Source: an uncultured delta proteobacterium
GTDB lineage: Bacteria; Myxococcota; UBA727; VGSZ01
NCBI GenBank assembly: GCA_963775425.1
Contig: CAVZJB010000005.1
Span: 320,001 to 384,000, forward strand
Reading direction: 5' to 3'
Length of the DNA: 64,000 nt
A program made the position numbers and the translations under genes. Under the pieces are notes generated by a model. That model was not told the origin of the DNA and ran no database searches. It saw only the letters and a program-made list of their open reading frames with translations. Numbering within the stretch: position 1 is the stretch's first letter; each line of letters begins with the position of its first letter. Positions 15,090-40,647 of this stretch are shown here, piece after piece.

Positions 15090-15182
15090 GCTGCTTATCC
15101 TCTCCGCGCGCCCTCTCTCGCCTCGCTCGGCGGAGTGCGCGGCTCGCTCCGGTCGGCTAGGTCTAGCATGCCGTGCCCGACC

Positions 15183-15210
15183 GATCAGCGACGGGAGGGA
15201 GCGGCCGCGC
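15183..15210 (+). repeat. Copy of ~29-bp dispersed REP-like repeat
   Basis: GATCAGCGACGGGAGGGAGCGGCCGCGC; near-identical to the copies at 23017-23088 and 52880-52923. Confidence 0.7.
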
Positions 15211-17611: not shown

Positions 17612-18326
17612 GGCGCGCGCGCCACCAGCGCGAGGTTCTTGCCGGCGACCGCCGAAAACGGAAGCGCCCGCTCGAGCAGGCGCGTGAGCGGCACGCCGAC
17701 ACGGTCGTAGAGGCGGGCGGCGCCGGTGCCGACCTCGCGGCGGCGGAGCACGCGGCCCACCAGCAGCCACGGCAGCACGCCGAGCGCGTCCACGTACCGC
17801 ACGCCGTCGACGACGAAGCCCGCCCGCGTCACGACGTCGACGAGGGCGCGGCGCGTGTACCGTCGCACGTGGCCCACGGCTTCGTCGAGCGTTCCGAACA
17901 ACAGCGGCAGCGCCGGGACGAACAACAGCAACCGCCCGCCCGGGCGCAGCAGCGAGCGCGCGGTGTCGAGCAGCCCGCGGTCGTCGGGGACGTGCTCGAG
18001 GACGTTGATGGCCACGACGTCGTCGAACACGCGCGCGAACGCCTCCGGCGACGCCGCGCGCGCTTCGTCGAGCGTGCCGGCGACCGCGGTCGTGCGCGGC
18101 AACGCCCGCGCGCGCAGCGTGTCGACGAGGCCGCGGTCGGGCTCCACGAGCACCGCCTCGTCCACCGACGGGAGGTAGTGCCGCGCCATGTTGCCGGTTC
18201 CGGCGCCGACCTCGAGGACGCGACCGCGCGGCCCTCCGTCGAGCGCGTCGAGGATGAAGCGCGCGTACGCGCCGAGCTCCGCCATCATCTCGAGATCGCG
18301 CCCGGGATACCCCGTGCCCGCGTCCA

Positions 18327-24592: not shown

Positions 24593-25768
24593 TCAGAGGA
24601 TGGGGGCGGGGCCTTCAGGGCGGCGCTTGTTCGGGCGCAGGACCCAGATGGCCTCCTCGCCAATGACGTCCTGAACGCCCTCGGTCTGGATCTCCGCCTG
24701 GGTGAAGGACGCCTGCGCGAACTCGAAGGTGCCGTCGGCGTTCTTGGCGGTGCACACGCGACAGTGGCCGCCGTCCGCGACGGCGCCTCCCTGGTGGTCG
24801 ACGATGAGCATGTCGCCGGGCTCGACCTTGGCGAGGAGCGCCTTGACGCGGCGCTCCTTCTCGTCGGGATCGGTGACGTTGTTCATGCCCATGAATTCCG
24901 CGCGCAGCTCGAAGCGCACGTGGTTGGCGTTGCCCCACTGCGCCGCGTGCGTGCCGCTCCACTTGTACAGCTGGTTGGCGTTGGGGTACTCGCCGTGTCC
25001 CTTGTTGCCGATGTACGGCGGCTCGAAGCCGGCGGCGGCGATGACGTTGCACGCGAAGAGGTTGCACTTCCACTTGCCCGTGAGGCCGCCGAGCCTCACG
25101 TTGGCGGGCAGCGCGTGGCGCGGATCGCAATTCACCCACGGATCGTCGACGCCGTAGGCGTTCGGGTGCTTGGTGACGAGGTTGACGGCGGCGTCGTGCA
25201 TGGCGCCGGGGCCCGGGACGTTGGGGTCGACGCCGCCGGCGAAGATGGGTGGCACGCGCGTGTCGCGCAGCGCGTTGTCGAGGGCCGTCGCCGTGGCGAG
25301 GTCGAGCGCGCCGGTCTGCGGCAAGCCCTTTTGCGCTTGAAAGGCCTTCACCGCGGCTTCGGTCTCGGAGCCCCAGCCGCCGTCGGCGCCGTATCTGGGG
25401 AGGCCGAGGCCAGCGTCGCCGGTGCGGCTCGCGAGCGCGAGCAGCGCCTTCTGCACGTTTTCGACGTCGCCGCGGCGGGAGCCCTTGTCGCGTGGGAAGA
25501 CCACGGTGCCGTTGAGCACGCCGGGTGACGCCGAGAGGTTCGCGATGGGCGCGCCGATGGACGCGCGGCTGCCGAGGTCGCGCAGCAGCGCGCGCAGCGC
25601 GTCGCCGGCGCCGCCCTCGAGGCAATCCACGAAGCGATGGGCGATGGTCTCGACGTCGGAGACCGACGCCGTCCCGCTCTGCACAGCGGCCTTGAGGCTC
25701 GAAAGCTCGGCGGTGGTGACGCGCGCGTCGCGCACGACGTTCTGGGCGATGGGGCTCAGGGAGGGCAT
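24593..25768 (-). CDS. Peptidoglycan-binding domain + papain-like (NlpC/P60/CHAP-like) putative amidase
   Basis: PG-binding motif DGGWGSETEAAVKAFQAQKGLPQTG; C-domain KCNLF...PGD...GHC (Cys-His dyad); no signal peptide. Confidence 0.75.
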   Translation of the reverse strand: MPSLSPIAQNVVRDARVTTAELSSLKAAVQSGTASVSDVETIAHRFVDCLEGGAGDALRALLRDLGSRASIGAPIANLSASPGVLNGTVVFPRDKGSRRGDVENVQKALLALASRTGDAGLGLPRYGADGGWGSETEAAVKAFQAQKGLPQTGALDLATATALDNALRDTRVPPIFAGGVDPNVPGPGAMHDAAVNLVTKHPNAYGVDDPWVNCDPRHALPANVRLGGLTGKWKCNLFACNVIAAAGFEPPYIGNKGHGEYPNANQLYKWSGTHAAQWGNANHVRFELRAEFMGMNNVTDPDEKERRVKALLAKVEPGDMLIVDHQGGAVADGGHCRVCTAKNADGTFEFAQASFTQAEIQTEGVQDVIGEEAIWVLRPNKRRPEGPAPIL

Positions 25769-25834
25769 CCGACGATGCTATGGCAGGCTCGGCCGAGGGT
25801 CACCCCATCGGCGTGACGGTGCTAACAGGGCTCC

Positions 25835-26560
25835 ATGCTGTGCGCCGCCGCCGTCCTCGTGCCGTTGCTCGCCGCCCAGGCCCCCGCGCCCGCCCCCACG
25901 GACAAGAGCGCCGTGGATAAAAGCGCCGCCGACAAAGCCGGCGAAACGGCGTTCCCCAAGGGGGAGGACGTCACGCTGCCCGGCCTCGTCGACGTCGGCG
26001 CCAAGCTGCCGGTGCACGTCGAGCTCAAGTACGGCACCTCCGACAACTTCATGAAGCGCGACGTCTACGGCGGGCTCAAGCGCTGCTTCCTCGTGCCCGA
26101 CGCGGCGGCGATGCTCGAGAAGGCGCACGCGCTCTTGAAGCAGCGATCGCCGACGACGACGTTCGTGATGTACGACTGCGCCCGGCCTAAGCGCGTGCAG
26201 GACATCATGTGGTCCGTGGTGGTCGGCACCAGGATGCAGGGCTACGTCGCCAACCCCACCAAGCCGCCGGGCTCCGTGCACAACCGCGGCTGCGCCGTGG
26301 ACCTCTCGCTGTGGGACACCGAGAAGAACGAGCCGCTCGACATGGGCACGCCGTTCGACTTCTTCGGCATCGCCGCGCAGCCGCGCCACGAGGTGGAGCT
26401 GTGGCGCGAAGGCAAGCTCACGTCGACGCAGTACGCCAATCGCCTGTTGCTGCGTGAGGTGATGTTGCGCGCGGGCTTTCGCATCCTCTCGCACGAGTGG
26501 TGGCACTTCGACTGCGCGTCGGGCTCACAGGCGCGCCGGAAGTACCCCGTGATTCCCTGA
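25835..26560 (+). CDS. ddpX: D-alanyl-D-alanine dipeptidase (M15D, VanX/DdpX family), exported
   Basis: YGTSDNF, YDCARP, SVHNRGCAVD (SxHxxGxAxD), DMGTPFD, EWWHFD; signal peptide. Confidence 0.9.
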   Translation: MLCAAAVLVPLLAAQAPAPAPTDKSAVDKSAADKAGETAFPKGEDVTLPGLVDVGAKLPVHVELKYGTSDNFMKRDVYGGLKRCFLVPDAAAMLEKAHALLKQRSPTTTFVMYDCARPKRVQDIMWSVVVGTRMQGYVANPTKPPGSVHNRGCAVDLSLWDTEKNEPLDMGTPFDFFGIAAQPRHEVELWREGKLTSTQYANRLLLREVMLRAGFRILSHEWWHFDCASGSQARRKYPVIP

Positions 26561-26679
26561 GCCCCCGGGATCGCGGGCTGCGCCCCGCGGCGCCGTGAAA
26601 ATCCGTCACCCCCGGCGCCCGAACGGCTGCGGCGCGCCGGGGCCGCCGGGTGGGCGCAGCGCTTGCTTGGCCCGCGCGC

Positions 26680-29037
26680 ATGCGTCTCCCTCGCGCGCGC
26701 ACGGACCTGCGGCACGCCGCGCGCGCGCTCGCGCTCGCGCTCCTCGGGGGCGCCGCGGGCTGCGCGTCGTGCGACCCCGCCGGGCTCGAGCGCATCACGC
26801 CGTCGCTCGACCTCTCGCCGGCGTCCGCCACCGTCGTGGTGTGGATCGGTTTCCCGGCGCACGTCGCGCTGGCGGCCACGAACACGAGCCGCGTCCCCGT
26901 CGACATCGGGGCGCCGGCGCTCGCGGGCGTGCCCGACGGCCTCTCCGTCGACGTTGACGCCCCGGAGGGGCTCGAGGGGGGCGCGGGCGCCGCCGTCGAC
27001 GTCGCTTTGGCGGCAGATCGCCCGCTCGCCGCCGACGTCATGCTCACGCTTCCCCCCGGCGCGCGCGACGTCGCGCCCGCCTCGGCCGTGCTGCACGTCG
27101 AGGCGCGTACGCCGCCGCCGTGCGCGCCGCGCGGTCCGTGCGAGGACGCGCGCTTCGACGCCGACGCCGGCGCCTGCGTCCGCGACGCCCACCCCGACGG
27201 CTCCGCGTGCGACGACGGCTCCGCGTGCACCGACGACGACCGCTGCTCCGCCGGCGCGTGCGTCGGCGCCGCGGTCGCCTGCGCCGACGGCGTCGGCTGC
27301 ACCGTGGACGCGTGCGACCCCGCGCGCGGCTGCGTGTTCACGCCCGTCGACGACCTCTGCGCCGACGACGATCCCTGCACCGCCAATCGCTGTGTGGCCT
27401 CGACGGGGTGCGCCCACGCCACCGCGCCCGACGGCACGCCCTGCGGCGCGTTTTCGTGCGCGACCTTCTCGGTGTGCGTCTCCGGCGGCTGCTTCACCGA
27501 GCCGACGCCCGACGGCTTCCCCTGCGAGGACGGCGATCTCTGCACCTCCGGCGACACCTGCGAGGGACATGCGTGCGTCGCGGGCGACCCGGTCGAGCCG
27601 GCGGCGAGCGCCCCCGCGGCGCTCGCGCGACCGAGCATCCACGTCGAGCCCGACCCGCGCTGGTTCCGCGACGGCCGCGCGGAGTTGCCGCCCGCGTTCG
27701 ACGTCGCGCTCGACTTCGGCGCCGTCCTCGATGTCGAACAGGCGCTCGCCGGCGTCACGCCCGTGCTCGCCGTGCTCTGGAAGAGCGCACCGTTTTCCTA
27801 TGGCGGCGCCCCCTGCGCGCCATGGGACATGTGGCAAAACGGCGTCGTCGACGACGCGCCGCCGTTTTGCGCCACCGCGGTCGTGGTCACCTTCGTCGGC
27901 GAAGACGAGCTCGCGGCGGGCGAGGCGGGCGGCGGCGGGGTCGCCTCGCCCGTCGACGTCGTCTACGGCACCGTCGACGGTACCTTTCGCGACGCGGACC
28001 ACGTCGTCGTCGCAGAGTCGACCTATACCCCGGGCCCCGCGTCGGCGCGCCTCGTCCGCGTCCTGCGCGCCTCGTTGGCCTGGGACACGCGGTCGCTCTC
28101 GCTCGACGGCGTCGAGCAAGACGACAGCGGGCCGCGCGCGTCGGTCGCGTTCAACGTCCACGCGGGGCTGCGCGTCGCCGCGGACGCCGACGACGTCTCC
28201 CTGCTCGGCTGGGACCTCCCCTACGTCGACGACAGCGCGCCACCGGCGGTCCCGGGGGGCAGCGCCGGCACCGCCGCGGTCCCGGTCTCGCCGTCGTGGA
28301 CGGCCACGCTCGACGCCGGCGCGCGGCTACCCCCGCCCGCGCCGGCCGAGCGGGGCGTGGTGACGTGGGACCCGCTGCTCACCGACGCGTGCGACCAGAC
28401 CTGGCCGCCCGCGGCGGAGGAGGTGTCGTTCTCCGACGTCGACGTCGCCCGCGCCGGCGGCCACACCTTCGCGGTGGTGCGCCACGGTCTGCTCGATCCG
28501 GACACCGACGGGTGCACCCCGGGCACGTCGCTGTCCCTCGTCGACGTCGACGCCGGCACCGTCACGCCCTGGGGCGGGGTGATTCGCGCCGCGTCGCTCA
28601 CGCGCGACGCCGGCGTCCTCGCCGTCGTCGACGAGGCGCTCACCGCTTGCGACGCGCTGTGGTGCTCGCCGTACGAGCTCGCGGTGCAGCCGGCGCCGTT
28701 CGATCAAGCCGACCCCGTCGTCACGCTCGTCACGTTCCCGCTGCAGGACGACGGCGCCGTGCCGGTCCGCGTCGCGGCCCTCGCCGGTCCGCCTGCGGGC
28801 GCCGTGGTCGAGAGCGCCGATCGCAGCGGCGGCATGACCCTGCACCTCGTCGACGCGATGGACACCGCCGCGCCGCTGTCGCTCACCACCGGCACGCTGC
28901 CGGCGTCGTCGGCGCCGTTGAGGGCGCTGCGCAGCCCGCTGTCGCCGCAGAGCGTGTACGCGGTGACGACCGCGGGCGCCGACGGCCTCGTGGTGCGCTT
29001 CGGCTGCCCGTTCCCGTCCGCGCCGGCGCCGCCGTAG
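26680..29037 (+). CDS. Secreted Cys-rich repeat protein (CDDGxxCTxD repeats), probable lipoprotein
   Basis: Signal with AAGC; repeats CDDGSACTDDDRC, CADGVGCTVDAC, CEDGDLCTSGDTC. Confidence 0.75.
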   Translation: MRLPRARTDLRHAARALALALLGGAAGCASCDPAGLERITPSLDLSPASATVVVWIGFPAHVALAATNTSRVPVDIGAPALAGVPDGLSVDVDAPEGLEGGAGAAVDVALAADRPLAADVMLTLPPGARDVAPASAVLHVEARTPPPCAPRGPCEDARFDADAGACVRDAHPDGSACDDGSACTDDDRCSAGACVGAAVACADGVGCTVDACDPARGCVFTPVDDLCADDDPCTANRCVASTGCAHATAPDGTPCGAFSCATFSVCVSGGCFTEPTPDGFPCEDGDLCTSGDTCEGHACVAGDPVEPAASAPAALARPSIHVEPDPRWFRDGRAELPPAFDVALDFGAVLDVEQALAGVTPVLAVLWKSAPFSYGGAPCAPWDMWQNGVVDDAPPFCATAVVVTFVGEDELAAGEAGGGGVASPVDVVYGTVDGTFRDADHVVVAESTYTPGPASARLVRVLRASLAWDTRSLSLDGVEQDDSGPRASVAFNVHAGLRVAADADDVSLLGWDLPYVDDSAPPAVPGGSAGTAAVPVSPSWTATLDAGARLPPPAPAERGVVTWDPLLTDACDQTWPPAAEEVSFSDVDVARAGGHTFAVVRHGLLDPDTDGCTPGTSLSLVDVDAGTVTPWGGVIRAASLTRDAGVLAVVDEALTACDALWCSPYELAVQPAPFDQADPVVTLVTFPLQDDGAVPVRVAALAGPPAGAVVESADRSGGMTLHLVDAMDTAAPLSLTTGTLPASSAPLRALRSPLSPQSVYAVTTAGADGLVVRFGCPFPSAPAPP

Positions 29038-29130
29038 GCGCCCGGCGCGGCCTCGGTCGGAGCGTCTCGGTCGCTTGACCTAGCCTGATCTCTCGACGGG
29101 CCGAAATCACGCAACCTCGATACTCGTCGC

Positions 29131-30234
29131 ATGACATCGCACGCGGTCGAGCGACTTCACAAAGACCTCCGGAAGCTGAAGCACGCAGAGCACACGCGGG
29201 ACCAGGAGGCGCGGAAGCTCCACAAGGACGAGCGCGCCGGGAAACACGAGCACAACGTCGCTGTTCACCAGCACGACGCCTTCGAGAAGAGCAAGAAGGC
29301 CCTCGGCAAGGAGCGCGACGTCCTCGGGAAGCTGCGCACGGCCGAGCAAAGGAAGCTCTCCACCATCGACACCCAGCGCACGCCGCTCCAGCAGCAGTAC
29401 GACGCCAGCGTCGATCCGCTGACGGGCCAGGGAGATCCCGCGCTGCAGCTCCAGCTCGACGCGCTCGATCAGCGCGAGGCCGGCGTGCACGCGCAGATGG
29501 ATCCGAAGATCGGCGCCGACCAAAACAAGGTGCAGTCGTTGCGTCAGGAGGTCGATCGCCATCGAATGGCGGCGCACACCGCCCGCGATGCGGTGAAGAA
29601 GGCGCGGGCGGCGGCCAAGAAGGACACGCACGTGCTCGAGCACGACAGGGCCGCGGTGAAGCGCGATCGCCAGCACGCGAAGAAGGACCTGCTGCCCGCC
29701 GAATACAAGATGGGCCTCAAGGGCACGAACCAAGCGCGCGAAGCGCTCGGGATGCACAAGGTCAACCACGTCATTCGTCCCCACGAAAAGCTCGACAAGG
29801 CCGTCAGCATCGCCAAGCACGCCGTCGAGCTCCAGGCGCGGACCCACAGCTACGACTACACGCAGGCGTACGGCGCGCGCACCAACAACGGCCGCGGCCC
29901 GACGACGCGGGGCGGCAACGGCCGCATCACCTTCGACTGCTCGGGCTTCGTCGGCTCCGTCTACAAGGCGGCGGGGCTGCCGTCGCCGTACACGGTCGGC
30001 TACACGGGCACGAGCTTCGACGTGGCCGCGTGCAAGAACATGCAGAAGGTCTCCGAGAAGCACGCCAAGCCGGGCGACGTCGTCGTGTTCCCCGACCACA
30101 TCGCGCTCTACATCGGCCACGGCAAATGCATCAGCATGGGGCAGGAGGGCGACCCGAAGACCGTCAGCGTCGCCGCCGAGGCCGCCTACAACAACCGCGG
30201 CATCGAGGGCTTCTATCACCCGAAGGGCGCGTAG
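29131..30234 (+). CDS. NlpC/P60 (C40) peptidoglycan endopeptidase with N-terminal coiled coil
   Basis: FDCSGFV, PGDVVVF, HIALYIG; long charged, His-rich helical N-terminus; no signal peptide. Confidence 0.9.
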   Translation: MTSHAVERLHKDLRKLKHAEHTRDQEARKLHKDERAGKHEHNVAVHQHDAFEKSKKALGKERDVLGKLRTAEQRKLSTIDTQRTPLQQQYDASVDPLTGQGDPALQLQLDALDQREAGVHAQMDPKIGADQNKVQSLRQEVDRHRMAAHTARDAVKKARAAAKKDTHVLEHDRAAVKRDRQHAKKDLLPAEYKMGLKGTNQAREALGMHKVNHVIRPHEKLDKAVSIAKHAVELQARTHSYDYTQAYGARTNNGRGPTTRGGNGRITFDCSGFVGSVYKAAGLPSPYTVGYTGTSFDVAACKNMQKVSEKHAKPGDVVVFPDHIALYIGHGKCISMGQEGDPKTVSVAAEAAYNNRGIEGFYHPKGA

Positions 30235-30520: not shown

Positions 30521-31747
30521 CTACTGCCGGCCGCGCCCGCTCTCGATGAGCGCGGCGGCGCGCTCCGCTCCCTGCGACGCGGCCAGCGCCGCGCCGAGCT
30601 CTCGCGCACGCGCGCGCATGTCGTCGTCGGCGAAGACGCGGGTGAGGGCACCCGCCAGCGCAGCCGCGGAGAAGCGCACGCGCAGCGGTTGCGGGGCGAC
30701 GCCGATCGCGTGGACGCGCGCAGCCCAGTGGTGTTGGTCGAACATGTGCGGCACCACGATCTGAGGCACGGCCGCGCGCGCCGCCTGCGCCGTCGTGCCG
30801 GCGCCGCCGTGGTGGACCACGGCCGCACATCGGGGAAAGAGGCGCCGGTGGTCGAGCGCGCCCTCGACGACGAACGTCGCCGCCGAGCGCACGCCCGCGC
30901 CGATGCCGCCCCACCCGGCGCCGATGACCGCGCGACACCCCACGCGCGCGAGCGCCTCCTGAACGACGCGCGACGTGTGCGCCGGGTCGCGCGCCGGCAT
31001 GGAGCCGAAGCTGATGAACACCGGCGGCGCGCCCGCGTCGAGGAACGCCTCCAGCTCGTCGGACAGCGGCGGGCCGTCGTCGAAGTACCAGAAACCCGTG
31101 GCGTGCACCGCGTAGCGGCTCCAGTCGCGCGGCACCGGCGCCACGCGCTCGTCGAAGGCGCACAGCATGGTGCCCTTCTTCAGCGCGCTTTCGCCGACGA
31201 GGGAGGTGACGGTGTCGAGGCCGTGCCTCGCGCGCTCTTCGTTGACAATCCGCAGGAGCGCGAGGTTGGCGGCGGCCACATAGACGCGCCACCCGAGCGG
31301 CCACAGGAGGCGGGGCATGCGCGGGTGGCCGAACATGGGCGGCCACACCTCGCTGCTCGGCAGCACTTGCGGGAAGTAGGCGGCGCCGAAGTACGGCAGG
31401 CCGTTGCGCTCGGCGACGGTCTGACCGGCGGCGAGGAGCGCGGTGCCCACGAGGACGTCGGCGCCCGCGCAAGCCTCCTCGAGGAACGCGAACTGTCGCC
31501 GCACTTCGACGCGCGCGAGCTTGAGGAAGGTGACGGGGTTGGCGATGCCGGCGCCCTCGTCCCGCATCATCGCCTGCGGATCGCCGCCGCCCTCGCAGTA
31601 GCGGGCGCCGGTGGCCTCCGCGAGGGCGCGGAAGTTGGGCGACACGCAGAGCGTGACCTCGTGCCCGCGGCGCAGCAGCGCGGCGGCGAGCCCCAGCATG
31701 GGTTGGACGTCGCCACGGGTGCCGACGGGGGCGAGGACGACGCGCAC
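30521..31747 (-). CDS. GT1/GT28-type glycosyltransferase (GtfA / sterol-glucosyltransferase-like)
   Basis: GTRGDVQP, FISFGSM, HHGGAGTT, PHMFDQHHWA. Confidence 0.92.
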   Translation of the reverse strand: MRVVLAPVGTRGDVQPMLGLAAALLRRGHEVTLCVSPNFRALAEATGARYCEGGGDPQAMMRDEGAGIANPVTFLKLARVEVRRQFAFLEEACAGADVLVGTALLAAGQTVAERNGLPYFGAAYFPQVLPSSEVWPPMFGHPRMPRLLWPLGWRVYVAAANLALLRIVNEERARHGLDTVTSLVGESALKKGTMLCAFDERVAPVPRDWSRYAVHATGFWYFDDGPPLSDELEAFLDAGAPPVFISFGSMPARDPAHTSRVVQEALARVGCRAVIGAGWGGIGAGVRSAATFVVEGALDHRRLFPRCAAVVHHGGAGTTAQAARAAVPQIVVPHMFDQHHWAARVHAIGVAPQPLRVRFSAAALAGALTRVFADDDMRARARELGAALAASQGAERAAALIESGRGRQ

Positions 31748-32082
31748 GTGAAGAGCATGGCACGAAGGCGCGCCGCGGCGGGTGGTGCGCCTTGGCGCAA
31801 GGCGCCGGACATCGACTCCGCGCAGGAGGGAAGCGGCAGGCGTGCCGGCACGTGCGCCAGGCCCGTCGCCGGTGCGCTGACACCGAGACGTCGAAGCGGA
31901 AGATGGAGCGGTGTCGCTGTGGCGACTTCGCAGCGGTGTGGAGGGCTCTCGTGCGCACCGGCACTGACCCTATTCCGCTATGCGGATCACTTCTCTAGGG
32001 TAGGCCTGTCGGACGAACGCCGGCGCCACGGACGGCGGCGAACGATGGAGGGCGCTTCTTGTTCACCAGACGACGAAGGCGC

Positions 32083-33018
32083 GTGCCCATCCTCCGCGGC
32101 GTCGCGTACCACATCGATGAGATCGCGCCGATCGACCGCATCCCCGAGCTCGCGGAGGACGCGGAGCTGCTGGCCGCCTTCAAGGAGAGCGGACACAAGA
32201 CCTACGGGCACTCCAACCAGAGCCTCGCCGCACAAGCGGTGAGCTCCACCCGGAAGACGCTGGCCGCGGCCAACCTGTCCGTCGGCGACGTCGAGGCGAT
32301 CGTTCTCGGCACCTCGGAGATCCCGGAGCCCAACCGCTATCCGGAGATGCTCAGCACCGAAGTGTTGACGGCGCTCGAGCTCTCCGACGTTCCCGTAATC
32401 GGCGTGACGCTGGCCGGCTGCGCCAACTACAGCAGCGGGCTGCGCGTGGCGCGGGACATGGCCTCGGCCGAGGGCCTGCGACACGTCCTCGTCATCGAGA
32501 CCAACCAGGTGCGCGGAGGGATGAAGCGCGCCGTCGTCGACAACGGCGACGCCGTCTCGATCTTCGCCGACGGCGCGGCGACCTGCGCCGTGAGCGTCGA
32601 GGACGATGCCTCCTTCCGCGGCCGGTCTTCGGACTTCGAGCTGGTCGCCATGGCGCAGACCATCAAGCCGCTCGACTGGGCGAGCGCGGAGGAGAACGTC
32701 ATCGCGGCGAACAACTTCATGGGGTTCCGCCGCGTCATCGACGAGGCCATGGAGCGCGCCGGCGCGACGCGCGCCGACTTCGTCCAGAGCTTCTTCTCCA
32801 ACATCGCCATCGGGCTCGTGAACGCCAACGCAGAGGTGCTGGGCCTGCCGCCCGTGTACACCGCCAACAACAGCCGCACCGCGCACGTCTGGAGCTGCGA
32901 CAACCTGATCAACCTCACGGACTACTGCGCCGCCGAGCAGGTGCCGGCGGGCGCCCTGTTCCTGCTTTTGTCCAACGCCGAGTCGTACTTCTCGGCGATC
33001 GTGTGCCGCAAGCGATGA
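32083..33018 (+). CDS. KAS III (FabH)-like acyltransferase with non-canonical triad
   Basis: Thiolase fold: LAGCANY (catalytic Cys), IFADGAA, FFSN at the FabH His position, TAHVWSCD at the FabH GN position; GTG start at 32083. Confidence 0.8.
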   Translation: MPILRGVAYHIDEIAPIDRIPELAEDAELLAAFKESGHKTYGHSNQSLAAQAVSSTRKTLAAANLSVGDVEAIVLGTSEIPEPNRYPEMLSTEVLTALELSDVPVIGVTLAGCANYSSGLRVARDMASAEGLRHVLVIETNQVRGGMKRAVVDNGDAVSIFADGAATCAVSVEDDASFRGRSSDFELVAMAQTIKPLDWASAEENVIAANNFMGFRRVIDEAMERAGATRADFVQSFFSNIAIGLVNANAEVLGLPPVYTANNSRTAHVWSCDNLINLTDYCAAEQVPAGALFLLLSNAESYFSAIVCRKR

Positions 33019-36000
33019 ATGCCCACGCAGACCTGAGGCCCGGCTTCCAGCGGTTGCTGGACCACATCGCGTCGCGCGTCGTCCCCGGGGTTTCGCTGGA
33101 GGCGGCGCTGCACGACATCCTCGCGCTCGGCGGCCGCCAGGAGCTCGCGTTCGGTATGAAGTCGCTGACGCCGCTGCAGCGCGCGGTGGTCGATGAGCTC
33201 GGTGGGCGGACGTCGACGCTCGTCGACGCCGACGCCGCCACCGCCGGCGGAGCCCGCTGGTACCTCGGCCAGTGGAGCTACGGCCGCATCTGGCTCGCCC
33301 CCGAGCGGCCGGCCGATCCCGAGTGCCGCCTGCTGGCTGCGCTCTCTCTGCCCGCGGCGACGCACGACGCCGTCGTCGCGCGCGCCGTCAGCATCCAGCA
33401 GTCGTGGCAGACGTGCGACCCCGAGATGGACGCGTTCTTCGACAACCTCGACGCCGAAGGACTGCAGCGCGTGCTCCACGAAGTGCACGAGACCGTCGAT
33501 CACACCGATCCGATGCTGCTCTATGTCGGCGACGACACCCTCACCAATTTCGGCAAGCTCAACAACCTGCAGGAGCGCGGCGCCGACCTGCCGCGCTGCT
33601 TCCACCGCCGCGCGCGGGAGATGGCGCGCGACCGCTGGACGACGGCGGAGCGGATCTACGTCTTCTGCGTCTACTGGCTGCGCAGGGCCGGCTGCCGCGG
33701 CGAAGAATTCTGCGGCCGCCAGCTCAACCCCACGCTGCTGCGCGAATACTTCGCGGAGCGGTTGGCGGGCTACCGCGCGCTCGCGCCGGAGCTCTGCGAG
33801 GAAGAAGCCTCATCCATCGCCGACCAGGCGCGGCTGCTCGCGCGCTGCAAGGCCGGGAGCGCACAGCAGCTCTTGACGTATCGCTGGATCAACGGGCTCA
33901 CGTTCTACAAGGAGGAGCGCGTGTGCTCGCGCTCGAGCGCGCGCTTCGGCGTCGACACGCTGCCGCCGGCGCTGCGCGTGTACATCGCGGACGCGTGCGG
34001 CGTCGACACCGGGCAGCACGAGTCGCTCGCCTCGCTGTTCGACGCGTGCGTGGCGCAGATGGCGCGCCGCGGGTTCGCCAGCGACGACGACAAGCTGAAC
34101 GCGTTCGAAGGGCTGCTGAAGGCGATTGTCGACTGCGCCATCGACGCCACCGGCAGCGACATCGGCATGAGCCGTGGCACGCGCGACGTCGCGCGCATGC
34201 AGCGCGCGTTCGGCGAGCAGCGTTATGCGGAGATCTGCGGGTGGCAGAGCCCCGACTACTTCTGCGCGGTCTTCCCGAGCGCCGCCCTGCGAGAGCAGCT
34301 CGCGGGCAACCCCGAGCTGCTGGTGAAGATCCTGTACGCGTGCTCGGCGCGCATGCAGTTCAACCACTGGCACTACATCCCGGGCCACTGCCCGCCCGAG
34401 GGCGTGCCGGCCGACCGGCACTACTACTACCCGCCCGGCGTGGCGGACCTCGCCGAGTGGAGCGACCAACATCACACGGGCCACGTGTTGGCGCAGGTGC
34501 GCTACAGCATCCGCTCGCCGGCGCCGCTGTCGTTTGGCGGAAAGCTCTACCCGGGCATGGTCGACCTGCGCCTCTTTCGCCAGAGCAGCGCGCCGTACAC
34601 GCCCGAAGAGCTCATGACGGCGCTGACGTACACGGACTACGTGCGCGCGCTGCAACAGTCGCTGTCGGATCACCTCGCGCGCGGCGGCGACCCTCTCGTG
34701 GTCGCCGCGTTCGGCAAGGATTGGTACCGCGACTATTACGGTGGCCGGCGCGCGCCCGGCGCCGCTGTGGAAGCCGCCTCCGCTGCGACCGGAGCGCCTG
34801 CGCCTGCGCCTTTCGCGATGGCGTCGGCGCGCGCGGCGCCGAGCACCGCGCTGTTCCGCATCCTGTGCCGGCACGCCGCCGAGGACGCCGGGCATGCCGC
34901 GCTGATCGAAGCGCGCCAGCCCGAGCCGGACGTCACGATCAGCTCCCGCAGGCTCCTCGCTCACGCGCAGGCGCTGCGCGACGCCATGCTCGGCGGCGGC
35001 CTCGCGCCCGGCGCCGCCGTCGCGGTCTTGTCCGAGCGCGCCGTGCATCAGACGGTGGCGATCGTCGCCGGCATCGCCAACGGGCTGATCGTCAACCCGC
35101 TCAACCCCGCGCTCTCGCCGCAGGTGCTGCGGGGGCAGATGGAGCACGCGCAACCCGCTTGGCTGATCGTCGACAGCGGCGTCGCGCCGCCGGCGGGTCT
35201 GCCGGGCACCGTGCGGTGCATCGCCTGGGACGACGTGTTTGCGAACGTCGCCCAACACGAAGCGCTGCCTGTCCCGACCGTCGACGACGGCGCCCCTCGC
35301 GAGGACGCGGGCGGCCTCTTGATCTACACGTCCGGCACCACGGGCGCCTCGAAGGGCGTGCTCTTGAGTTGGTCGAACATCGAAGCCAACGTGCGCTACG
35401 CCGTCGACGCGCTCGGCTTCGAGCCCGGGCAGGTGACGGGCAGCCTGCTCCCGCGCTTTCACACGTTCACGCTCATCAGCGACCTCTTCCCGGCGCTGCT
35501 GCTCGGCGGCACCGGGGTGCTGGCAGACACCTTCGATCTGTCCAACGTGAAGTGGACGGTGGACGCCTTTGTTCGCCACGGCGTGCGTTCGTACAGCGCC
35601 GTGCCCGTCATCTTCGACGCGCTGTGTGCCTTGAACGCCTGGGCCTCCGCGCCGGCGCTGCGCATGGCGATCGCCGGCGCTGCGCCGCTCAAGGAGAACA
35701 CGCGGCTCACGTATAAGAAGGCGTTCGGCCACCCGATCATCCCCTGCTACGGCCTGAGCGAGACGACGTGCTTCGCCGCCATCTCACCGCCGGACGCCAT
35801 CCGACCCGGCGCCGTCGGTCGCGCCGCCGGCATCGAGATCCGCGTCGTCGACGAAGAGGGCGCTCCGCTCGGCAGCGGCGTCACCGGTGAGCTCGAGATG
35901 CGCGGCGCTTCGGTGATCAACAGCGGCTATTTCCACGACACCGACGGCCAGTTCGCGCGCGCGTTCACCGCCGACGGCTGGTTCAAGACGGGCGACGTCG

Positions 36001-36374
36001 GACGCATCGACGACGACGACTATGTGTACGTAACCGGCCGCAAGAAGAACATGGTCATTCGCGGCGGCGAGAAGGTCTATCTCGAAGACGTTGACCGTTG
36101 CCTCGCCGAATTCCTGGGCGTCCTCGACTGCGCCAGCATCGTGCTGTGCCAGCCGAACGAGCCCGACCTGGCGTTGACGTTCATCGTCACCTCCGGTTCT
36201 CCACTGCCGCTTGACGAGGTCACCGCGCACGTGCGCGCCGCGCTTTCGGCGCATCACGTCCCCGACCGCATCTACTTCGTCGAGCGCATCCCGCGCACGG
36301 CGACCGGCAAGGCCTCGCATCCGGAGCTGCTCGCGCTGTCCAAGGCGCTGCGCTCCTCCCAGGAGGGCGCGTGA
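33015..36374 (+). CDS. Fusion protein: BtrL/NeoM-like phosphoribosyltransferase domain + adenylate-forming (AMP-binding) ligase
   Basis: C-half: YTSGTTGASKG, YGLSET, FKTGDVG, GRKKNMVIRGGEK, PRTATGK (secure). N-half: LLYVGDDTLTNFGKLNNL, RGEEFCG, YRWINGLTFYKEER, SDIGMS, RMQFNHWHYIPG, RHYYYPP, SDQHHTGH, VRYSIRSP (BtrL-like, recalled from memory). ATGA overlap with the upstream gene. Confidence 0.75.
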   Translation: MNAHADLRPGFQRLLDHIASRVVPGVSLEAALHDILALGGRQELAFGMKSLTPLQRAVVDELGGRTSTLVDADAATAGGARWYLGQWSYGRIWLAPERPADPECRLLAALSLPAATHDAVVARAVSIQQSWQTCDPEMDAFFDNLDAEGLQRVLHEVHETVDHTDPMLLYVGDDTLTNFGKLNNLQERGADLPRCFHRRAREMARDRWTTAERIYVFCVYWLRRAGCRGEEFCGRQLNPTLLREYFAERLAGYRALAPELCEEEASSIADQARLLARCKAGSAQQLLTYRWINGLTFYKEERVCSRSSARFGVDTLPPALRVYIADACGVDTGQHESLASLFDACVAQMARRGFASDDDKLNAFEGLLKAIVDCAIDATGSDIGMSRGTRDVARMQRAFGEQRYAEICGWQSPDYFCAVFPSAALREQLAGNPELLVKILYACSARMQFNHWHYIPGHCPPEGVPADRHYYYPPGVADLAEWSDQHHTGHVLAQVRYSIRSPAPLSFGGKLYPGMVDLRLFRQSSAPYTPEELMTALTYTDYVRALQQSLSDHLARGGDPLVVAAFGKDWYRDYYGGRRAPGAAVEAASAATGAPAPAPFAMASARAAPSTALFRILCRHAAEDAGHAALIEARQPEPDVTISSRRLLAHAQALRDAMLGGGLAPGAAVAVLSERAVHQTVAIVAGIANGLIVNPLNPALSPQVLRGQMEHAQPAWLIVDSGVAPPAGLPGTVRCIAWDDVFANVAQHEALPVPTVDDGAPREDAGGLLIYTSGTTGASKGVLLSWSNIEANVRYAVDALGFEPGQVTGSLLPRFHTFTLISDLFPALLLGGTGVLADTFDLSNVKWTVDAFVRHGVRSYSAVPVIFDALCALNAWASAPALRMAIAGAAPLKENTRLTYKKAFGHPIIPCYGLSETTCFAAISPPDAIRPGAVGRAAGIEIRVVDEEGAPLGSGVTGELEMRGASVINSGYFHDTDGQFARAFTADGWFKTGDVGRIDDDDYVYVTGRKKNMVIRGGEKVYLEDVDRCLAEFLGVLDCASIVLCQPNEPDLALTFIVTSGSPLPLDEVTAHVRAALSAHHVPDRIYFVERIPRTATGKASHPELLALSKALRSSQEGA

Positions 36375-37312
36375 TCATCGATAGCCACGCGCACGCGGCG
36401 CTGGAGGAGGTGCTGCCCACGCGCTTCTTCGACGGGTGGGTCGACAACCTCGAGCGCTTGTTGCCGTCCGATGCGTCGCCGGCGCAGCGCGCGGCGCTCA
36501 GCGCGATGTTTCGCGCCGCAAACCAGGACCCGGGCTGCGACCGGCTGGTGGCCGAGATGGATCGCGCCGGCATCGCCAAGACGGTGCTGTTGATCGTCGA
36601 CTTCGGGTACGCGTATCCCGATCAGCTCGACGCGCTCGAGAGCATCTACGAGCTGCATCGTCAGCTCATGCAGCGCCACGCGGGCCGCTTCATCGTCTTC
36701 GCGGGCATCGATCCGCGCCGCGGTCAGGCGGGCGTCGACCTGCTGGAGCGCGGCCTGCGGGATTGGGGCTTTCGCGGGATGAAGATCTATCCCCCGTGTG
36801 GCTACTCGCCGGACGCGCGCGAGCTCGATCCCTTCTACGAGGTCTGCACGCACTACAGCGTCCCGGTGCTGTCCCACATCGGGCCGACGTCGCCCACGTT
36901 GTCGTTCAAGCACACGCGGCCCGAGCACATCGAGGACGCGGCGTTCCGCTTCCCCGGCGTGAACTTCATCCTCGGCCACGCCGGCGTCACGTGGCGCGCG
37001 GAGGCCAGAATGCTCGCGGCCTTCAGGCCGAACGTCTACCTCGACCTCTCGGGCTTCCAGCCGCACTGGAAGCGCGGGGAGCTCGACGGGATCCTGGCCG
37101 AGCACAAGCGTGACGGCGTGCTGCGCAAGCTCTTGTTCGGCACGGACTGGCCCATCCACTTCCTGCACGGCGATCAGCAGCAGTGCGTGGAGGCGTTCCG
37201 CGACTGCGCGCGGCGCGGGGTCATCACCGAGGAAGAGCTGGGCTGGCTCTTCTACCGGAACGCGCAGAGGCTGTTCGGGGACGCCGCCGGCGGCGAGGAA
37301 GCCGCGAGGTAG
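36371..37312 (+). CDS. Amidohydrolase family 2 metalloenzyme
   Basis: IDSHAH, GMKIYP, PVLSHIG, ILGHAG, NVYLDLS, LFGTDWP; GTGA overlap with the upstream gene. Confidence 0.92.
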   Translation: MIIDSHAHAALEEVLPTRFFDGWVDNLERLLPSDASPAQRAALSAMFRAANQDPGCDRLVAEMDRAGIAKTVLLIVDFGYAYPDQLDALESIYELHRQLMQRHAGRFIVFAGIDPRRGQAGVDLLERGLRDWGFRGMKIYPPCGYSPDARELDPFYEVCTHYSVPVLSHIGPTSPTLSFKHTRPEHIEDAAFRFPGVNFILGHAGVTWRAEARMLAAFRPNVYLDLSGFQPHWKRGELDGILAEHKRDGVLRKLLFGTDWPIHFLHGDQQQCVEAFRDCARRGVITEEELGWLFYRNAQRLFGDAAGGEEAAR

Positions 37313-37359
37313 GGTGCGCGCCGCGCGCTGGGCTACCATTGGCTGGAAAGGGAACTCTC

Positions 37360-37584
37360 ATGTCAACCCGGCAGGCCGTGCTCGATGTGCTCGCCAAACA
37401 TGCGCAGTGCGACGCCGCCACGCTCTCACCCGAGGACGTCCTGGCCGACGTCGGCGTCAATTCTCTCAAGTTCATCATGGTGCTCCTGGAGATCGAGCAG
37501 GTGACGGGGAAGAAGGTCATGGACATCAACAAGATCGGCAAGCTGAAGACGGTGGGCGACGTCCTTGCGCTGACCGAGTCGTAG
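37360..37584 (+). CDS. Acyl carrier protein
   Basis: 74 aa; LADVGVNSL phosphopantetheine Ser motif, LLEIEQ, TVGDV; purine-rich RBS. Confidence 0.9.
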   Translation: MSTRQAVLDVLAKHAQCDAATLSPEDVLADVGVNSLKFIMVLLEIEQVTGKKVMDINKIGKLKTVGDVLALTES

Positions 37585-37593
37585 GGAACCCCG

Positions 37594-38019
37594 ATGCACG
37601 ACATCCGCCTCGCCCGACAAGACGACGAGATCGCCGCGACGTTCGCCGTGATGCACCAACTGCGCACGCATCTCGTCGAGAGCGACTACGTCGCGCTGGT
37701 GCGTAAGCTCCAGGCACAAGGGTACTTGTTGGCCTACGTGGACGACGGCGAGCGCGTGGTGGCCGCCGCCGGTTTCAAGCTCGGCGCCTCGCTCGCCTGG
37801 GGCGACTACGTCTATATCGACGACCTCGTCACCGACACCCGCGCGCGCTCGGCCGGGCACGGTGCGCGGCTGATGGCATGGGTCGCCGATTACGGCCGCC
37901 AACGCGGCTGCACCGAGCTCCACCTGGACTCCGGGGTGCAACGCTTCGCCGCGCACCGCTTCTATCTGCGCGAGCGCATGGACATCACCTGCCATCACTT
38001 CTGTCTACGCATCGCGTAG
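37594..38019 (+). CDS. GNAT family N-acetyltransferase
   Basis: YIDDLVTDTRARSAGHG (acetyl-CoA-binding motif A), HLDSGVQRFAAHRFY. Confidence 0.92.
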   Translation: MHDIRLARQDDEIAATFAVMHQLRTHLVESDYVALVRKLQAQGYLLAYVDDGERVVAAAGFKLGASLAWGDYVYIDDLVTDTRARSAGHGARLMAWVADYGRQRGCTELHLDSGVQRFAAHRFYLRERMDITCHHFCLRIA

Positions 38020-38790: not shown

Positions 38791-39747
38791 TCAACGCAGC
38801 GCGAGGACGCTCCGGGCGACGCCTTCGGCGTCGAGGCCGTGCTTTTTGTAGAGCGCCTTGGGGTCGCCGGACTCGCCGAAGACGTCCTGCACGCCGAGGC
38901 GCAGCAGGCGCGCCGGCGTCCGCGACGTCAACGACTCGGCCACCGCCCCGCCGAGGCCGCCGAGCACGTTGTGGTCCTCCACCGTCACCAGGCCGAGCTT
39001 GCACTCCCGGGCCGCCTTCTCGATGGCGTCGTCGTCCACGGGCTTGATGGTCGACGCGTTCAAGACGCGGGCCGACACGCCCTGCTTGGCGAGCAGCGCC
39101 GCCGCATCGACGGCGCCGCCGACGCAGCCTCCGGTCGCGAGGATGGCGACGTCGGTGCCCTCGAGGAGCGTGGGGAACCTTCCCGGCACGAAGCGGTAGC
39201 CCTCGGGGTGCACCCGCGGCACGTCCTGCCGCGTGAGCCGCAGGTACGCCGGGCGCGGATCCGTCGCGAGGTGGTCCACCATCTGCGCGGTCTCGACGTC
39301 GTCGGCCGGCTGCAACACCAACATGGTGGGCAGCGAGCGCATCAGCGCCAGGTCCTCGAGGCCTTGCTGCGAGTAGCCGTCGGGGCCGATGCCGACGCCG
39401 GCGTGCGTGCCGACGATGCGCACGCGCGCCTGCGAGTACGCCACGCTCATCTTGATCTGGTCGAAGCGCCCCGTGATGAAGCAGGCGAACGAGCAGCAAA
39501 ACGGCGTGTAGCCCGAGAGCGCGAGCCCGGACGCGGTGCCGAGCATGTTCGCCTCCTGGATGCCCATCTCGAAGAAGCGATCGGGGTGGGCCTTGGCGAA
39601 CACCACGGACATCGTGGACTTGCTGAGGTCGGCGTCGAGCACCACGACCTTGTCGTCGCGATCGCCGAGCGCCTTGAGGGCTTCGCCGAACGCCTTGCGC
39701 GTGGCCATGGGCTTGACGACGTCGACGGCTGCGGTGGGGTGGTTCAT
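38791..39747 (-). CDS. Transketolase, C-terminal subunit (pyrimidine-binding and C domains)
   Basis: ATRKAFG, LDADLSKST, EMGIQEANM, GIGPDGYS, YLRL, EDHNVLGGLG, FGESG. Confidence 0.95.
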   Translation of the reverse strand: MNHPTAAVDVVKPMATRKAFGEALKALGDRDDKVVVLDADLSKSTMSVVFAKAHPDRFFEMGIQEANMLGTASGLALSGYTPFCCSFACFITGRFDQIKMSVAYSQARVRIVGTHAGVGIGPDGYSQQGLEDLALMRSLPTMLVLQPADDVETAQMVDHLATDPRPAYLRLTRQDVPRVHPEGYRFVPGRFPTLLEGTDVAILATGGCVGGAVDAAALLAKQGVSARVLNASTIKPVDDDAIEKAARECKLGLVTVEDHNVLGGLGGAVAESLTSRTPARLLRLGVQDVFGESGDPKALYKKHGLDAEGVARSVLALR

Positions 39748-40592
39748 GCGAGCTCCTTCATGGCGCGCTCGTACTCGTCTTTGTTCGGCGCCTTGCCGTG
39801 CCAGCCGACGGTGTCCTTCTCGAAGAAGCTCACGCCCTTGCCCTTGATGGTGTGGGAGAGCACCACCGTAGGCCTGGCGGTCTCCGCGCGCGCGGCCGCG
39901 CACGCCGAGCGAATCTCGTCGACGGAGTGGCCGTCGATGGTCAGCACGTTCCAGCCGAACGCGCGCCACTTTTCGGCCAGCGGCTCGAGGGGCATGACGT
40001 CGGAGACCAGGCCGTCGATCTGTCCGTTGTTCCAGTCCACGAACACCGTGAGGTTGGTGGCGCCGAGCTTGGGCGCCGACAGCGCCGCCTCCCACACCTG
40101 CCCCTCCTGCAGCTCGCCGTCTCCGGTGACGACGTAGCAGCGCCAGGCCGGGCCCTTGTCGCCGCCGGTCGACGCGGCGCCGCCGAGCTTGCCGGCGAGC
40201 GCGATGCCCTGCGCCACGCTCAGGCCCTGCCCGAGGGAGCCTGTGGACGCCTCGATGCCGGGGAGGAGCGCGTTGGCGGGGTGTCCCTGCAGGGGCGAGC
40301 CCAGCTCCCGCAGCGTGCTCAGATCGGACAGCGGGAAGTAGCCGCGCTCGGCCATCACCGCGTACAGCGCGGGGACGCCGTGGCCCTTGGAGAGCACGAA
40401 GCGATCGCGCTCGGGCCACGAGGGGTTCTTCGCATCGAAGCGCATCTCGCCCGAATAGAGGGTGAGGATGATCTCGAGGGCGGAGAAGCTCCCGCCGGGG
40501 TGGCCGCTGCCGGCCTTGGTGATGGCCTCGAGGATGTGGCGCCGGAGCTTCTTGGCGGTCTCCCGGAGCTCGTCCACGCTGATTTGCTGCAT
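39744..40592 (-). CDS. Transketolase, N-terminal TPP-binding subunit
   Basis: SGHPGG, RDRFVLSKGH, LQGHP, TGSLGQG, GDGELQEG, TIKGKG, WHG. Confidence 0.95.
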   Translation of the reverse strand: MQQISVDELRETAKKLRRHILEAITKAGSGHPGGSFSALEIILTLYSGEMRFDAKNPSWPERDRFVLSKGHGVPALYAVMAERGYFPLSDLSTLRELGSPLQGHPANALLPGIEASTGSLGQGLSVAQGIALAGKLGGAASTGGDKGPAWRCYVVTGDGELQEGQVWEAALSAPKLGATNLTVFVDWNNGQIDGLVSDVMPLEPLAEKWRAFGWNVLTIDGHSVDEIRSACAAARAETARPTVVLSHTIKGKGVSFFEKDTVGWHGKAPNKDEYERAMKELA

Positions 40593-40647
40593 GCCCCCGC
40601 TTATGTTCCCGGTGCGTCGACGACAAGAGGTGGCGTAGCTTCCGCCC

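Follow-up and report, generated by a model that had tools for sequence, protein, structure and literature searches.

What is made by a compact operon whose central gene fuses an adenylating enzyme to a second large domain? The question is raised by a locus of an uncultured delta proteobacterium (assembly GCA_963775425.1, contig CAVZJB010000005.1, positions 320,001 to 384,000), a stretch of 64,000 nucleotides that was analysed as a whole and is hereafter called the window. At positions 32083-38019, it encodes a protein resembling 3-oxoacyl-[acyl carrier protein] synthase III (KAS III), a fusion protein of 1119 residues, a hydrolase of the Amidohydro_2 family, an acyl carrier protein (ACP) and a small GNAT N-acyltransferase. 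An initial annotation had described these as five co-oriented genes, the first three translationally coupled, and this is what we find: all are located on the plus strand, with stop/start overlaps of ATGA between the KAS III-like and fusion genes (33015-33018) and of GTGA between the fusion and amidohydrolase genes (36371-36374). In our analysis, the N-terminal part of the fusion relates to enzymes that form nitrogen-nitrogen (N-N) bonds, and we consider it likely that the operon is a compact cryptic cassette for a metabolite with such a bond, in which a hydrazino acid made by the heme domain would be loaded onto the ACP and then transferred further by the KAS III-like enzyme. The likeliest product is an ACP-tethered (acyl)hydrazino acid, probably derived from glycine.

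The fusion protein (33015-36374) consists of an N-terminal domain comprising residues 1 to about 577 (33015-34745), an Ala/Pro-rich linker (34746-34868), which is gapped and poorly conserved in an alignment of 17 sequences, and a C-terminal adenylate-forming (ANL) domain with AMP-binding and AMP-binding_C regions (34869-36374). Neither the N-terminal domain nor nine of its relatives matches a Pfam or NCBIfam family at E ≤ 1, and the best PDB hits have E-values of 0.63 by sequence and 0.079 by profile. The domain was identified from the genomic context of its homologues. A search of 1.84 billion representative sequences yielded 231 homologues at E ≤ 0.001; among the 150 matches listed, most are standalone proteins of 560-650 residues and only four exceed 1000 residues, and in a collection of 5.8 billion proteins all 21 of 21 long homologues carry an AMP-binding/ANL domain. 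A locus search of species genomes with an alignment of 18 sequences gave 218 pattern matches; 201 of them encode a relative, and 80 loci were retained. In 43 of the 78 loci represented in the tree, the homologue has an amidase gene and a glutamine-synthetase-like gene next to it, an adenylosuccinate-lyase-like gene is found nearby in 40 of 80 and a GNAT gene in 36 of 80, and clustering of neighbours shows that actinomycete homologues also lie next to a DUF3050 gene. In a Pfam scan of the Salinispora pacifica locus, amidase, glutamine-synthetase-like, adenylosuccinate-lyase-like and GNAT genes flank the homologue, with three aromatic hydroxylases and an O-methyltransferase present in addition. 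The amidase/glutamine-synthetase-like context is known from fosfazinomycin, kinamycin and lomaiviticin as the 'hydrazino cassette'.

According to the available text of recent work, the hypothetical proteins of this cassette, KinJ, FzmP, Lom29 and FsnU2, are heme b enzymes; KinJ and FzmP, together with a ferredoxin, reduce nitrite onto L-aspartate to form hydrazinosuccinate, and L-aspartate is also the substrate of FsnU2 (bioRxiv 10.1101/2025.05.27.656397, PMC12408219). The same preprint, as far as accessible, describes the conversion of glycine to hydrazinoacetate by NegJ, places no ferredoxin partner within the clusters of FzmP and NegJ, proposes three arginines and an asparagine of the KinJ active site to bind substrates and reports a GAF-like similarity of KinJ to DosT and PixJ (bioRxiv 10.1101/2025.05.27.656397). 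An alignment of the window domain with the homologue of the Salinispora pacifica cassette extends over the whole length (27% identity over 581 residues, E 1e-50). Its residues C417, R446, M447, N450, H453, H490, R500 and R519, which are invariant or at least 90% conserved among 74 sequences, correspond at a constant offset of 51 to C468, R497, M498, N501, H504, the axial H541, R551 and R570 of KinJ. An AlphaFold model based on the 74-sequence alignment is of high confidence (predicted local distance difference test (pLDDT) 94.8, predicted TM-score 0.93), with pLDDT falling toward the end of the domain at the linker. In VIA-align, residues ~302-560 of the model match the GAF-type structure 3cit (Z 9.9, root-mean-square deviation (rmsd) 2.8, 135 residues aligned), PixJ (4fof; Z 9.6, rmsd 4.0, 152 aligned) and DosS (4ynr; Z 9.2, rmsd 3.2, 125 aligned), values only slightly higher than the stated background of Z 7-8, and Foldseek returned no match at E ≤ 0.001 and only weak GAF and phytochrome rows. 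A GAF-like fold of the C-terminal part agrees with the DosT and PixJ classes of the KinJ paper. By homology, residues 1 to ~577 of the fusion are thus a heme b domain of the KinJ/FzmP/NegJ family and a predicted heme-dependent hydrazine synthase.

The resemblance to GAF sensor domains, which include the heme-binding DosS and which are the sole fold resemblance found, would also suit a heme/GAF-like domain that senses NO, nitrite or the redox state and thereby controls an ordinary acyl-ACP ligase, with an N-acylated product devoid of an N-N bond, and the cassette indeed contains neither a ferredoxin nor a nitrite-forming gene. However, all published catalytic residues are invariant, including the arginines and the asparagine proposed to bind substrates, the homology to proven enzymes extends over the full length and the domain alternates with a hydrazine-forming pathway as described below, which makes a sensory role highly improbable. 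The initial annotation had assigned the same domain to a phosphoribosyltransferase (PRT)-like class that would add phosphoribose from phosphoribosyl pyrophosphate (PRPP), leading to an acylated, ribosylated metabolite. The sole basis of this label is that residues ~166-180 (LLYVGDDTLTN) locally resemble a PRPP-binding motif, and since this stretch lies outside the invariant columns of the 74-sequence family, we reject it. There is no match to a PRT family at E ≤ 1 and none in the PDB by sequence or profile, and no PRT is found among the listed structural matches of the model, which barely probe residues 1 to ~300. With a domain that belongs to a family of heme enzymes and nothing pointing toward ribose or phosphoribose chemistry, a ribosylated product appears next to negligible in probability.

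The ANL domain starts at residue ~619, and its matches to PF00501 (E 2.4e-56) and PF13193 (E 5.3e-06) are confined to the C-terminal half of the fusion. The motifs T772-S-G-T-T-G, G1008-R-x-K and G1098-K1099 are invariant in the alignment of 17 sequences, and among proteins of solved structure, malonyl-CoA and oxalyl-CoA synthetases come closest (E 1e-45 to 1e-37). Because these relatives activate small diacids, we predict the domain to be an acyl-ACP ligase whose substrate is a small polar acid. The ACP (37360-37584, 74 residues; PP-binding, E 6.5e-06), with its serine within a GVNSL motif, occupies the same position in the related loci L001-L004, L008 and L010. The GNAT (37594-38019, 141 residues) matches Acetyltransf_1 (PF00583, E 7.9e-13) and PF13508 only, and is 58-71% identical to copies in Noviherbaspirillum and 46-59% to those of other phyla. 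A different role of the ANL domain would be the activation of nitrite for a second N-N bond rather than of an acid for the ACP, the fusion then building an N-N-N or N-nitroso group. The heme domain family binds nitrite and ATP-dependent nitrite-using enzymes take part in triacsin biosynthesis, as far as the accessible literature goes; Tri17 and CreM reportedly activate nitrite, and such enzymes are said to be of the ANL type. This reading is very unlikely in light of the ACP gene that is conserved two genes downstream of the fusion, the retention of the thioester-forming C-terminal domain with its lysine and the closest solved relatives, which are acid-CoA ligases.

The KAS III-like protein (32083-33018, 311 residues, with an alternative TTG start at 32059) belongs to a rare subfamily of 36 proteins at E ≤ 1e-5. 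It scores 23.3 bits against Pfam ACP_syn_III, just below the cut-off of 24 bits, and E 1.5e-11 against NCBIfam fabH. A Foldseek search with its AlphaFold model (pLDDT 92.0) places NatS (7vyu), ChlB3 (7eqi), DpsC and CerJ on top with TM-scores of 0.78-0.84, NatS being the best match (E 1e-21, TM-score 0.82), compared to 0.74-0.77 for FabH. The nearest relatives of the model thus are acyltransferases, which supports the logic of an adenylation enzyme, an ACP and a KAS III-like acyltransferase that had been proposed for the operon. In an alignment with FabH, which at 19% identity may contain register errors, Cys113 coincides with the catalytic cysteine, the position of the FabH histidine is variable in the subfamily (Ser, His or Asn; Ser in the window protein), that of the asparagine is taken by the invariant His268, and Asp273 is nearly invariant. 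Of the Cys-His-Asn triad of condensing KAS III enzymes of the FabH type, the window protein has thus kept the cysteine only. Its His-x4-Asp pattern presumably matches the triad of the acyltransferase-type enzymes DpsC and CerJ. Together, the residue pattern and the structural matches favour transacylation over condensation as the function of the protein.

The amidohydrolase (36371-37312; PF04909, E 2.8e-35 over residues 3-303) is conserved more strongly than any other gene of the cassette, with 73-76% identity to the copies of Noviherbaspirillum. In 10 sequences, H6, H8, H169, H203 and D259 are invariant and correspond to the HxH, His, His and Asp metal ligands that the family carries on a TIM barrel. 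NatAM is not among its sequence matches in the PDB. More distant copies occur in other settings. In Pseudomonas mediterranea (L178, 8052-17507), a copy of 42% identity is accompanied by a GNAT, a methyltransferase, a hexapeptide transferase, a KAS III-like protein, a PhyH dioxygenase, an ANL enzyme and an MFS pump, and N-N genes are absent from the locus. The set of amidohydrolase, ANL and KAS III-like genes recurs in 18 of 47 more distant amidohydrolase loci (of Streptomyces, Nonomuraea, Lysobacter and others), in varying order, the ANL gene being mostly found just upstream of the amidohydrolase and downstream of it in the loci of Pseudomonas.

To what extent do these genes travel together? 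With the fusion as query, we obtained 12 related loci. Four of them, all from Noviherbaspirillum, contain the five genes in the same order, in line with the co-occurrence in other genomes that the initial annotation had proposed to examine. Five others (Polyangiaceae and 'Deltaproteobacteria' metagenome-assembled genomes (MAGs), Angelobacter and one proteobacterial MAG) combine the N-terminal domain with two matches to the A-domain, the amidohydrolase and the GNAT and lack a KAS; two from Bacteroidota hold the A-domain, amidohydrolase and GNAT without the N-terminal domain, with an ACP match in L010 only; and one shows a weak match to the A-domain only. The five-gene arrangement is far beyond chance. 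In L008, the N-terminal domain and the A-domain are split into separate proteins, and a distant standalone homologue of the domain in genome G203 still lies beside an ANL and a GNAT gene. The latter locus (L019, 4328-10943), in a genome of 11.9 Mb, is a KinJ-linked cassette of another kind, where the standalone homologue is followed by an ANL protein with AMP-binding_C_3, an Acetyltransf_3 GNAT, an alpha/beta hydrolase, a JmjC/cupin_8 oxygenase and a TauE exporter.

The locus of Aquimarina sediminis (L010, 5353-16948) is one of the two without the N-terminal domain. It contains an operon-like row of genes for a lysine N-monooxygenase, a methionyl-tRNA-synthetase-like (MetRS-like) protein, a cupin, a DAO oxidase, an adenylase, an Amidohydro_2 protein, an ACP, a GNAT, a C45 peptidase and a thioester-reductase/hydrolase. 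Its first four genes are those that form hydrazinoacetate in s56-p1, triacsin and azaserine biosynthesis, and the row as a whole looks like a complete cryptic pathway via hydrazinoacetate in a member of the marine Bacteroidota. A locus search with the amidohydrolase gave 179 matches, of which 169 are relatives, and 80 loci were kept. Of these, 16 carry a KinJ-like gene and 8 carry hydrazinoacetate genes, defined as at least two of lysine N-monooxygenase, MetRS-like, cupin and DAO, while none has both; among the 27 loci with a GNAT of the window type, 21 fall into one of the two N-N classes. In the genome that contains the window, there is no genuine lysine N-monooxygenase, with two partial matches of ~22 bits only. 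In a tree of 79 N-terminal domains, the cassette-linked ones, from Proteobacteria, Acidobacteriota, Myxococcota and Bacillota, define one clade separate from the kin-type clade (Shimodaira-Hasegawa-like approximate likelihood ratio test (SH-aLRT) support 98), accounting for 13 of its 14 rows. KinJ homologues of staphylococci (L032, L035, L037) and Bacillus glycinifermentans (L031) group in a clade of their own.

A GNAT, an adenylase, a carrier protein and a KAS III constitute the hydrazinoacetate-processing set of triacsin and azaserine, so that the gene set is not without characterised precedent, although the initial annotation had named none. According to the accessible text of the respective publications, such processing enzymes are found in the systems of triacsin (Tri31/29/30/22/13/14), azaserine (AzsS/P/Q/T/F/D), N-nitroglycine and Dob; in the azaserine, triacsin and Dob systems, a GNAT succinylates hydrazinoacetate, an AMP-ligase then loads it onto a carrier protein, desuccinylation by a C45 peptidase and oxidation by an acyl-CoA-dehydrogenase-like enzyme follow in an order on which the papers differ, and a KAS III-family enzyme finally moves the unit to another carrier (PMC10445470, PMC13274452, PMC13061610). 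The Pfam set of the Tri31/Tri29/Tri30/Tri22 type comprises an Acetyltransf_3 succinyltransferase, an ACAD-like oxidase and a C45 peptidase, again as far as the accessible text tells (PMC13061610). A Pfam scan of the window cassette detected no gene with PF02770 or PF03417.

By analogy and from comparative genomics, we infer the following sequence of events for the window cassette. This also covers glycine as the amino acid used, the timing of acylation relative to loading, the part played by the amidohydrolase and the acceptor served by the KAS III-like enzyme. The heme domain, with a ferredoxin encoded elsewhere, would reduce nitrite onto the amine of an amino acid, most likely glycine, to yield hydrazinoacetic acid. 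The GNAT may then acylate the free hydrazine nitrogen with an acetyl or succinyl moiety as a protecting group, before the fused adenylase would activate the carboxylate and load it onto the ACP, the fusion serving to channel a reactive intermediate. The amidohydrolase, as a possible stand-in for the C45 peptidase of azaserine, might either remove the acyl group or hydrolyse or cyclise the tethered unit, and Cys113 of the KAS III-like enzyme would ultimately take over the unit and hand it to another carrier or nucleophile, as in case of AzsD and Tri13. Since the cassette contains no oxidase, the unit probably stays at the level of a hydrazine (hydrazide).

Several observations weigh against this proposal. 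There is no ferredoxin gene in the cassette or in nine related loci, where a scan for Fe-S motifs returned out-of-frame artefacts only, and neither a ferredoxin of the DUF3470 type nor narG is found in the 94.6%-complete genome that contains the window. The same genome encodes three ferredoxin-like open reading frames (ORFs) elsewhere, including the 7Fe type, at C2:108049-108729, C5:783453-783938 and C16:839395-839736; a predicted complex between the N-terminal domain and the 7Fe-type ferredoxin of contig C2 obtained a score of 0.28, with the mark at 0.32, and was used neither way. The assignment of glycine draws on a single line of evidence, the alternation with hydrazinoacetate genes. The GNAT and the ANL domain are of other subfamilies than Tri31 and Tri29, the GNAT not being of the Acetyltransf_3 type listed for the Dob and Tri31 enzymes, and the A-domain shares 26% identity over 160 residues only with the ANL beside the KinJ homologue of G203, a divergence due to which the order 'acylate, then load' is one of analogy and not of orthology. 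The Aquimarina locus contains both the amidohydrolase and a C45 peptidase, which weakens a simple replacement of one by the other, and we see neither a second carrier protein nor anything else that could serve the KAS III-like enzyme as acceptor. Moreover, in 56 of the 80 amidohydrolase loci the surrounding 10 kb hold no N-N module of either kind; many of them are more distant copies of 41-44% identity in other contexts with ANL and KAS III-like genes. Finally, characterised members of the Amidohydro_2 family are, as far as is known, decarboxylases, hydratases and lactonases rather than amidases, and the closest solved matches of the window protein are an uncharacterised protein and the decarboxylase LigW.

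The relationship to LigW would be expected if the amidohydrolase were a decarboxylase or cyclase acting on a tethered hydrazino acid, which the heme domain would have made from aspartate or another amino acid, with, for instance, a hydrazino-propionyl unit or an N-N heterocycle as outcome. L-Aspartate is the substrate of KinJ, FzmP and FsnU2 in the text available to us. ANL, ACP, KAS III-like and amidohydrolase proteins are moreover said to form benzoxazoles, with the amidohydrolase closing the ring, and NatS leads the structural matches of the KAS III-like protein. We nevertheless regard this scheme as unlikely, as the cassette alternates with glycine-specific hydrazinoacetate machinery and not with genes of the aspartate type, and as its KinJ clade is distinct from the aspartate-using kin-type clade. 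Beyond the glycine-based pathway that we prefer, a bolder proposition is that the five genes would be self-sufficient, with the fusion handing the hydrazino acid directly to the ACP and the Amidohydro_2 protein carrying out new N-N chemistry such as the closure of an N-N heterocycle or the formation of a hydrazide, which would define a new small class of hydrazine-type compounds in soil Proteobacteria, Acidobacteriota and this organism. We offer this possibility tentatively and find it rather doubtful.

How did the cassette reach its present location? Acquisition, which the initial annotation had deduced from codon usage, is supported by synteny and phylogeny, but not on its original basis. 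The N-terminal domain of the window groups with the copies of Noviherbaspirillum (SH-aLRT 100, 53-56% identity), whereas a copy from the window's own family (G026) shares only 35% identity and has an architecture with two A-domains. In three genomes of the same family with a syntenic site (G084, G069 and G026), the stretches that match the genes for an M15 peptidase and a chemotaxis receptor are 0.44-0.72 kb apart, compared to ~14 kb in the window. Other genes of the ~14-kb segment code for a large repeat protein, an NlpC/P60 protein, a glycosyltransferase of family 1 (GT1) and a split transketolase. An excess of codons ending on T or A, as had been claimed, is not evident: the fraction of G+C at third codon positions amounts to 0.946, 0.926, 0.898, 0.933, 0.893 and 0.873 in the pieces of the cassette and to 0.936 ± 0.026 (range 0.871-0.967) in 18 other genes of the window. 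The total G+C of the operon block (0.61-0.70) is below that of its surroundings, owing to codon positions 1 and 2, with a value of ~72% for the window.

Other features surround the operon. Just upstream, at 31830-32000, a repeat of ~130 nucleotides adjoins another of ~50 nucleotides; at least 13 further copies with 80-97% identity, some as inverted pairs, are found on 12 contigs of the same genome, and the element, for which Rfam contains no match, looks like a miniature inverted-repeat transposable element (MITE) or a repetitive extragenic palindromic (REP) sequence. The divergent GT1 gene (30521-31747) was considered as a member of the cluster and rejected, since none of the 12 related loci gave a match. 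A group of cell-wall genes at 24593-30234 encodes a PG_binding_1 protein, an M15 (VanX-like) D-Ala-D-Ala dipeptidase, a Dictyostelium-type repeat protein of 795 residues and an NlpC/P60 hydrolase, the latter two inside the segment that the three relatives lack at the syntenic site. On the minus strand (38791-40600), the transketolase is split into an ORF ending at 39744 with the N-terminal domain that binds thiamine pyrophosphate and another in a different frame (38791 to ~39708) with the pyrimidine-binding and C-terminal domains, which looks like the normal two-subunit form rather than a frameshift. Further away, the region 15167-18000 is of odd composition, with a G+C of 0.775 and an AT skew of +0.385 in the bin 16001-18000 and 95% G+C at the first codon positions of the ORF 15167-17335, suggesting a low-complexity or repeat protein.

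The comparison with known systems relates the cassette to three groups. With KinJ/KinI, FzmP, Lom29, FsnU2/FsnV and NegJ, it shares full-length homology, the axial histidine plus seven active-site residues and the GAF-like C-terminal fold, and with FzmP and NegJ it shares the lack of an in-cluster ferredoxin. It differs from them in the fusion of the heme domain to an adenylating domain, in its separate clade and in the missing amidase, glutamine-synthetase-like and lyase partners. The enzyme family and the general idea of interchangeable N-N routes are already in print: the accessible text of the preprint notes gene clusters with homologues of Tri31/Tri29 and states that the KinJ and AzaEFG routes 'may be interchangeable' (bioRxiv 10.1101/2025.05.27.656397). 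A protein fusion of the KinJ type is not mentioned in the accessible parts of that text or of PMC12408219. The accessible literature describes neither the adenylase fusion nor the set of Amidohydro_2, small GNAT and KAS III-like proteins, its mutually exclusive pairing with two N-N routes or any product of the cassette, although cassettes of this type may already be listed in the network tables that supplement the preprint. Enzymes forming N-N bonds are few, and the KinJ family was recognised only in 2025, with only aspartate- and glycine-using members studied. In this family, a natural fusion tells which enzyme takes over the product of the heme domain, and the comparative evidence portrays the heme/nitrite and the lysine-hydroxylase/MetRS-cupin routes as interchangeable feeders of one downstream module. 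As a small portable set of five genes that lends itself to heterologous expression, the cassette offers a route to a new hydrazine-type metabolite and to a function for an uncharacterised clade of Amidohydro_2 proteins.

The second group comprises the benzoxazole cassettes of nataxazole (NatL2/NatAM/NatS), caboxamycin and A33853, which reportedly combine an ANL enzyme, an ACP, a KAS III-like amide synthase and an amidohydrolase. The same four enzyme classes are found in the window, where NatS is nearest to the KAS model; the window differs by the absence of genes for the aryl acid (3-hydroxyanthranilate) and the presence of a heme hydrazine synthase domain. With the third group, the triacsin, azaserine, N-nitroglycine and Dob systems, the cassette shares a GNAT, an AMP-ligase, a carrier protein and a KAS III-family transacylase, there acting on a hydrazino acid, and 8 of 80 related loci place a window-type cassette beside lysine-hydroxylase, MetRS-cupin and DAO genes. 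In contrast to these systems, the hydrazino acid would originate from a heme enzyme and nitrite, an Amidohydro_2 protein is found where a C45 peptidase and an acyl-CoA-dehydrogenase-like oxidase would be, and there is neither a non-ribosomal peptide synthetase nor a polyketide synthase as acceptor. By analogy, the window cassette would thus follow the logic of triacsin and azaserine with two substitutions, a fused heme domain with nitrite as nitrogen source and an Amidohydro_2 protein in place of the peptidase and the oxidase.

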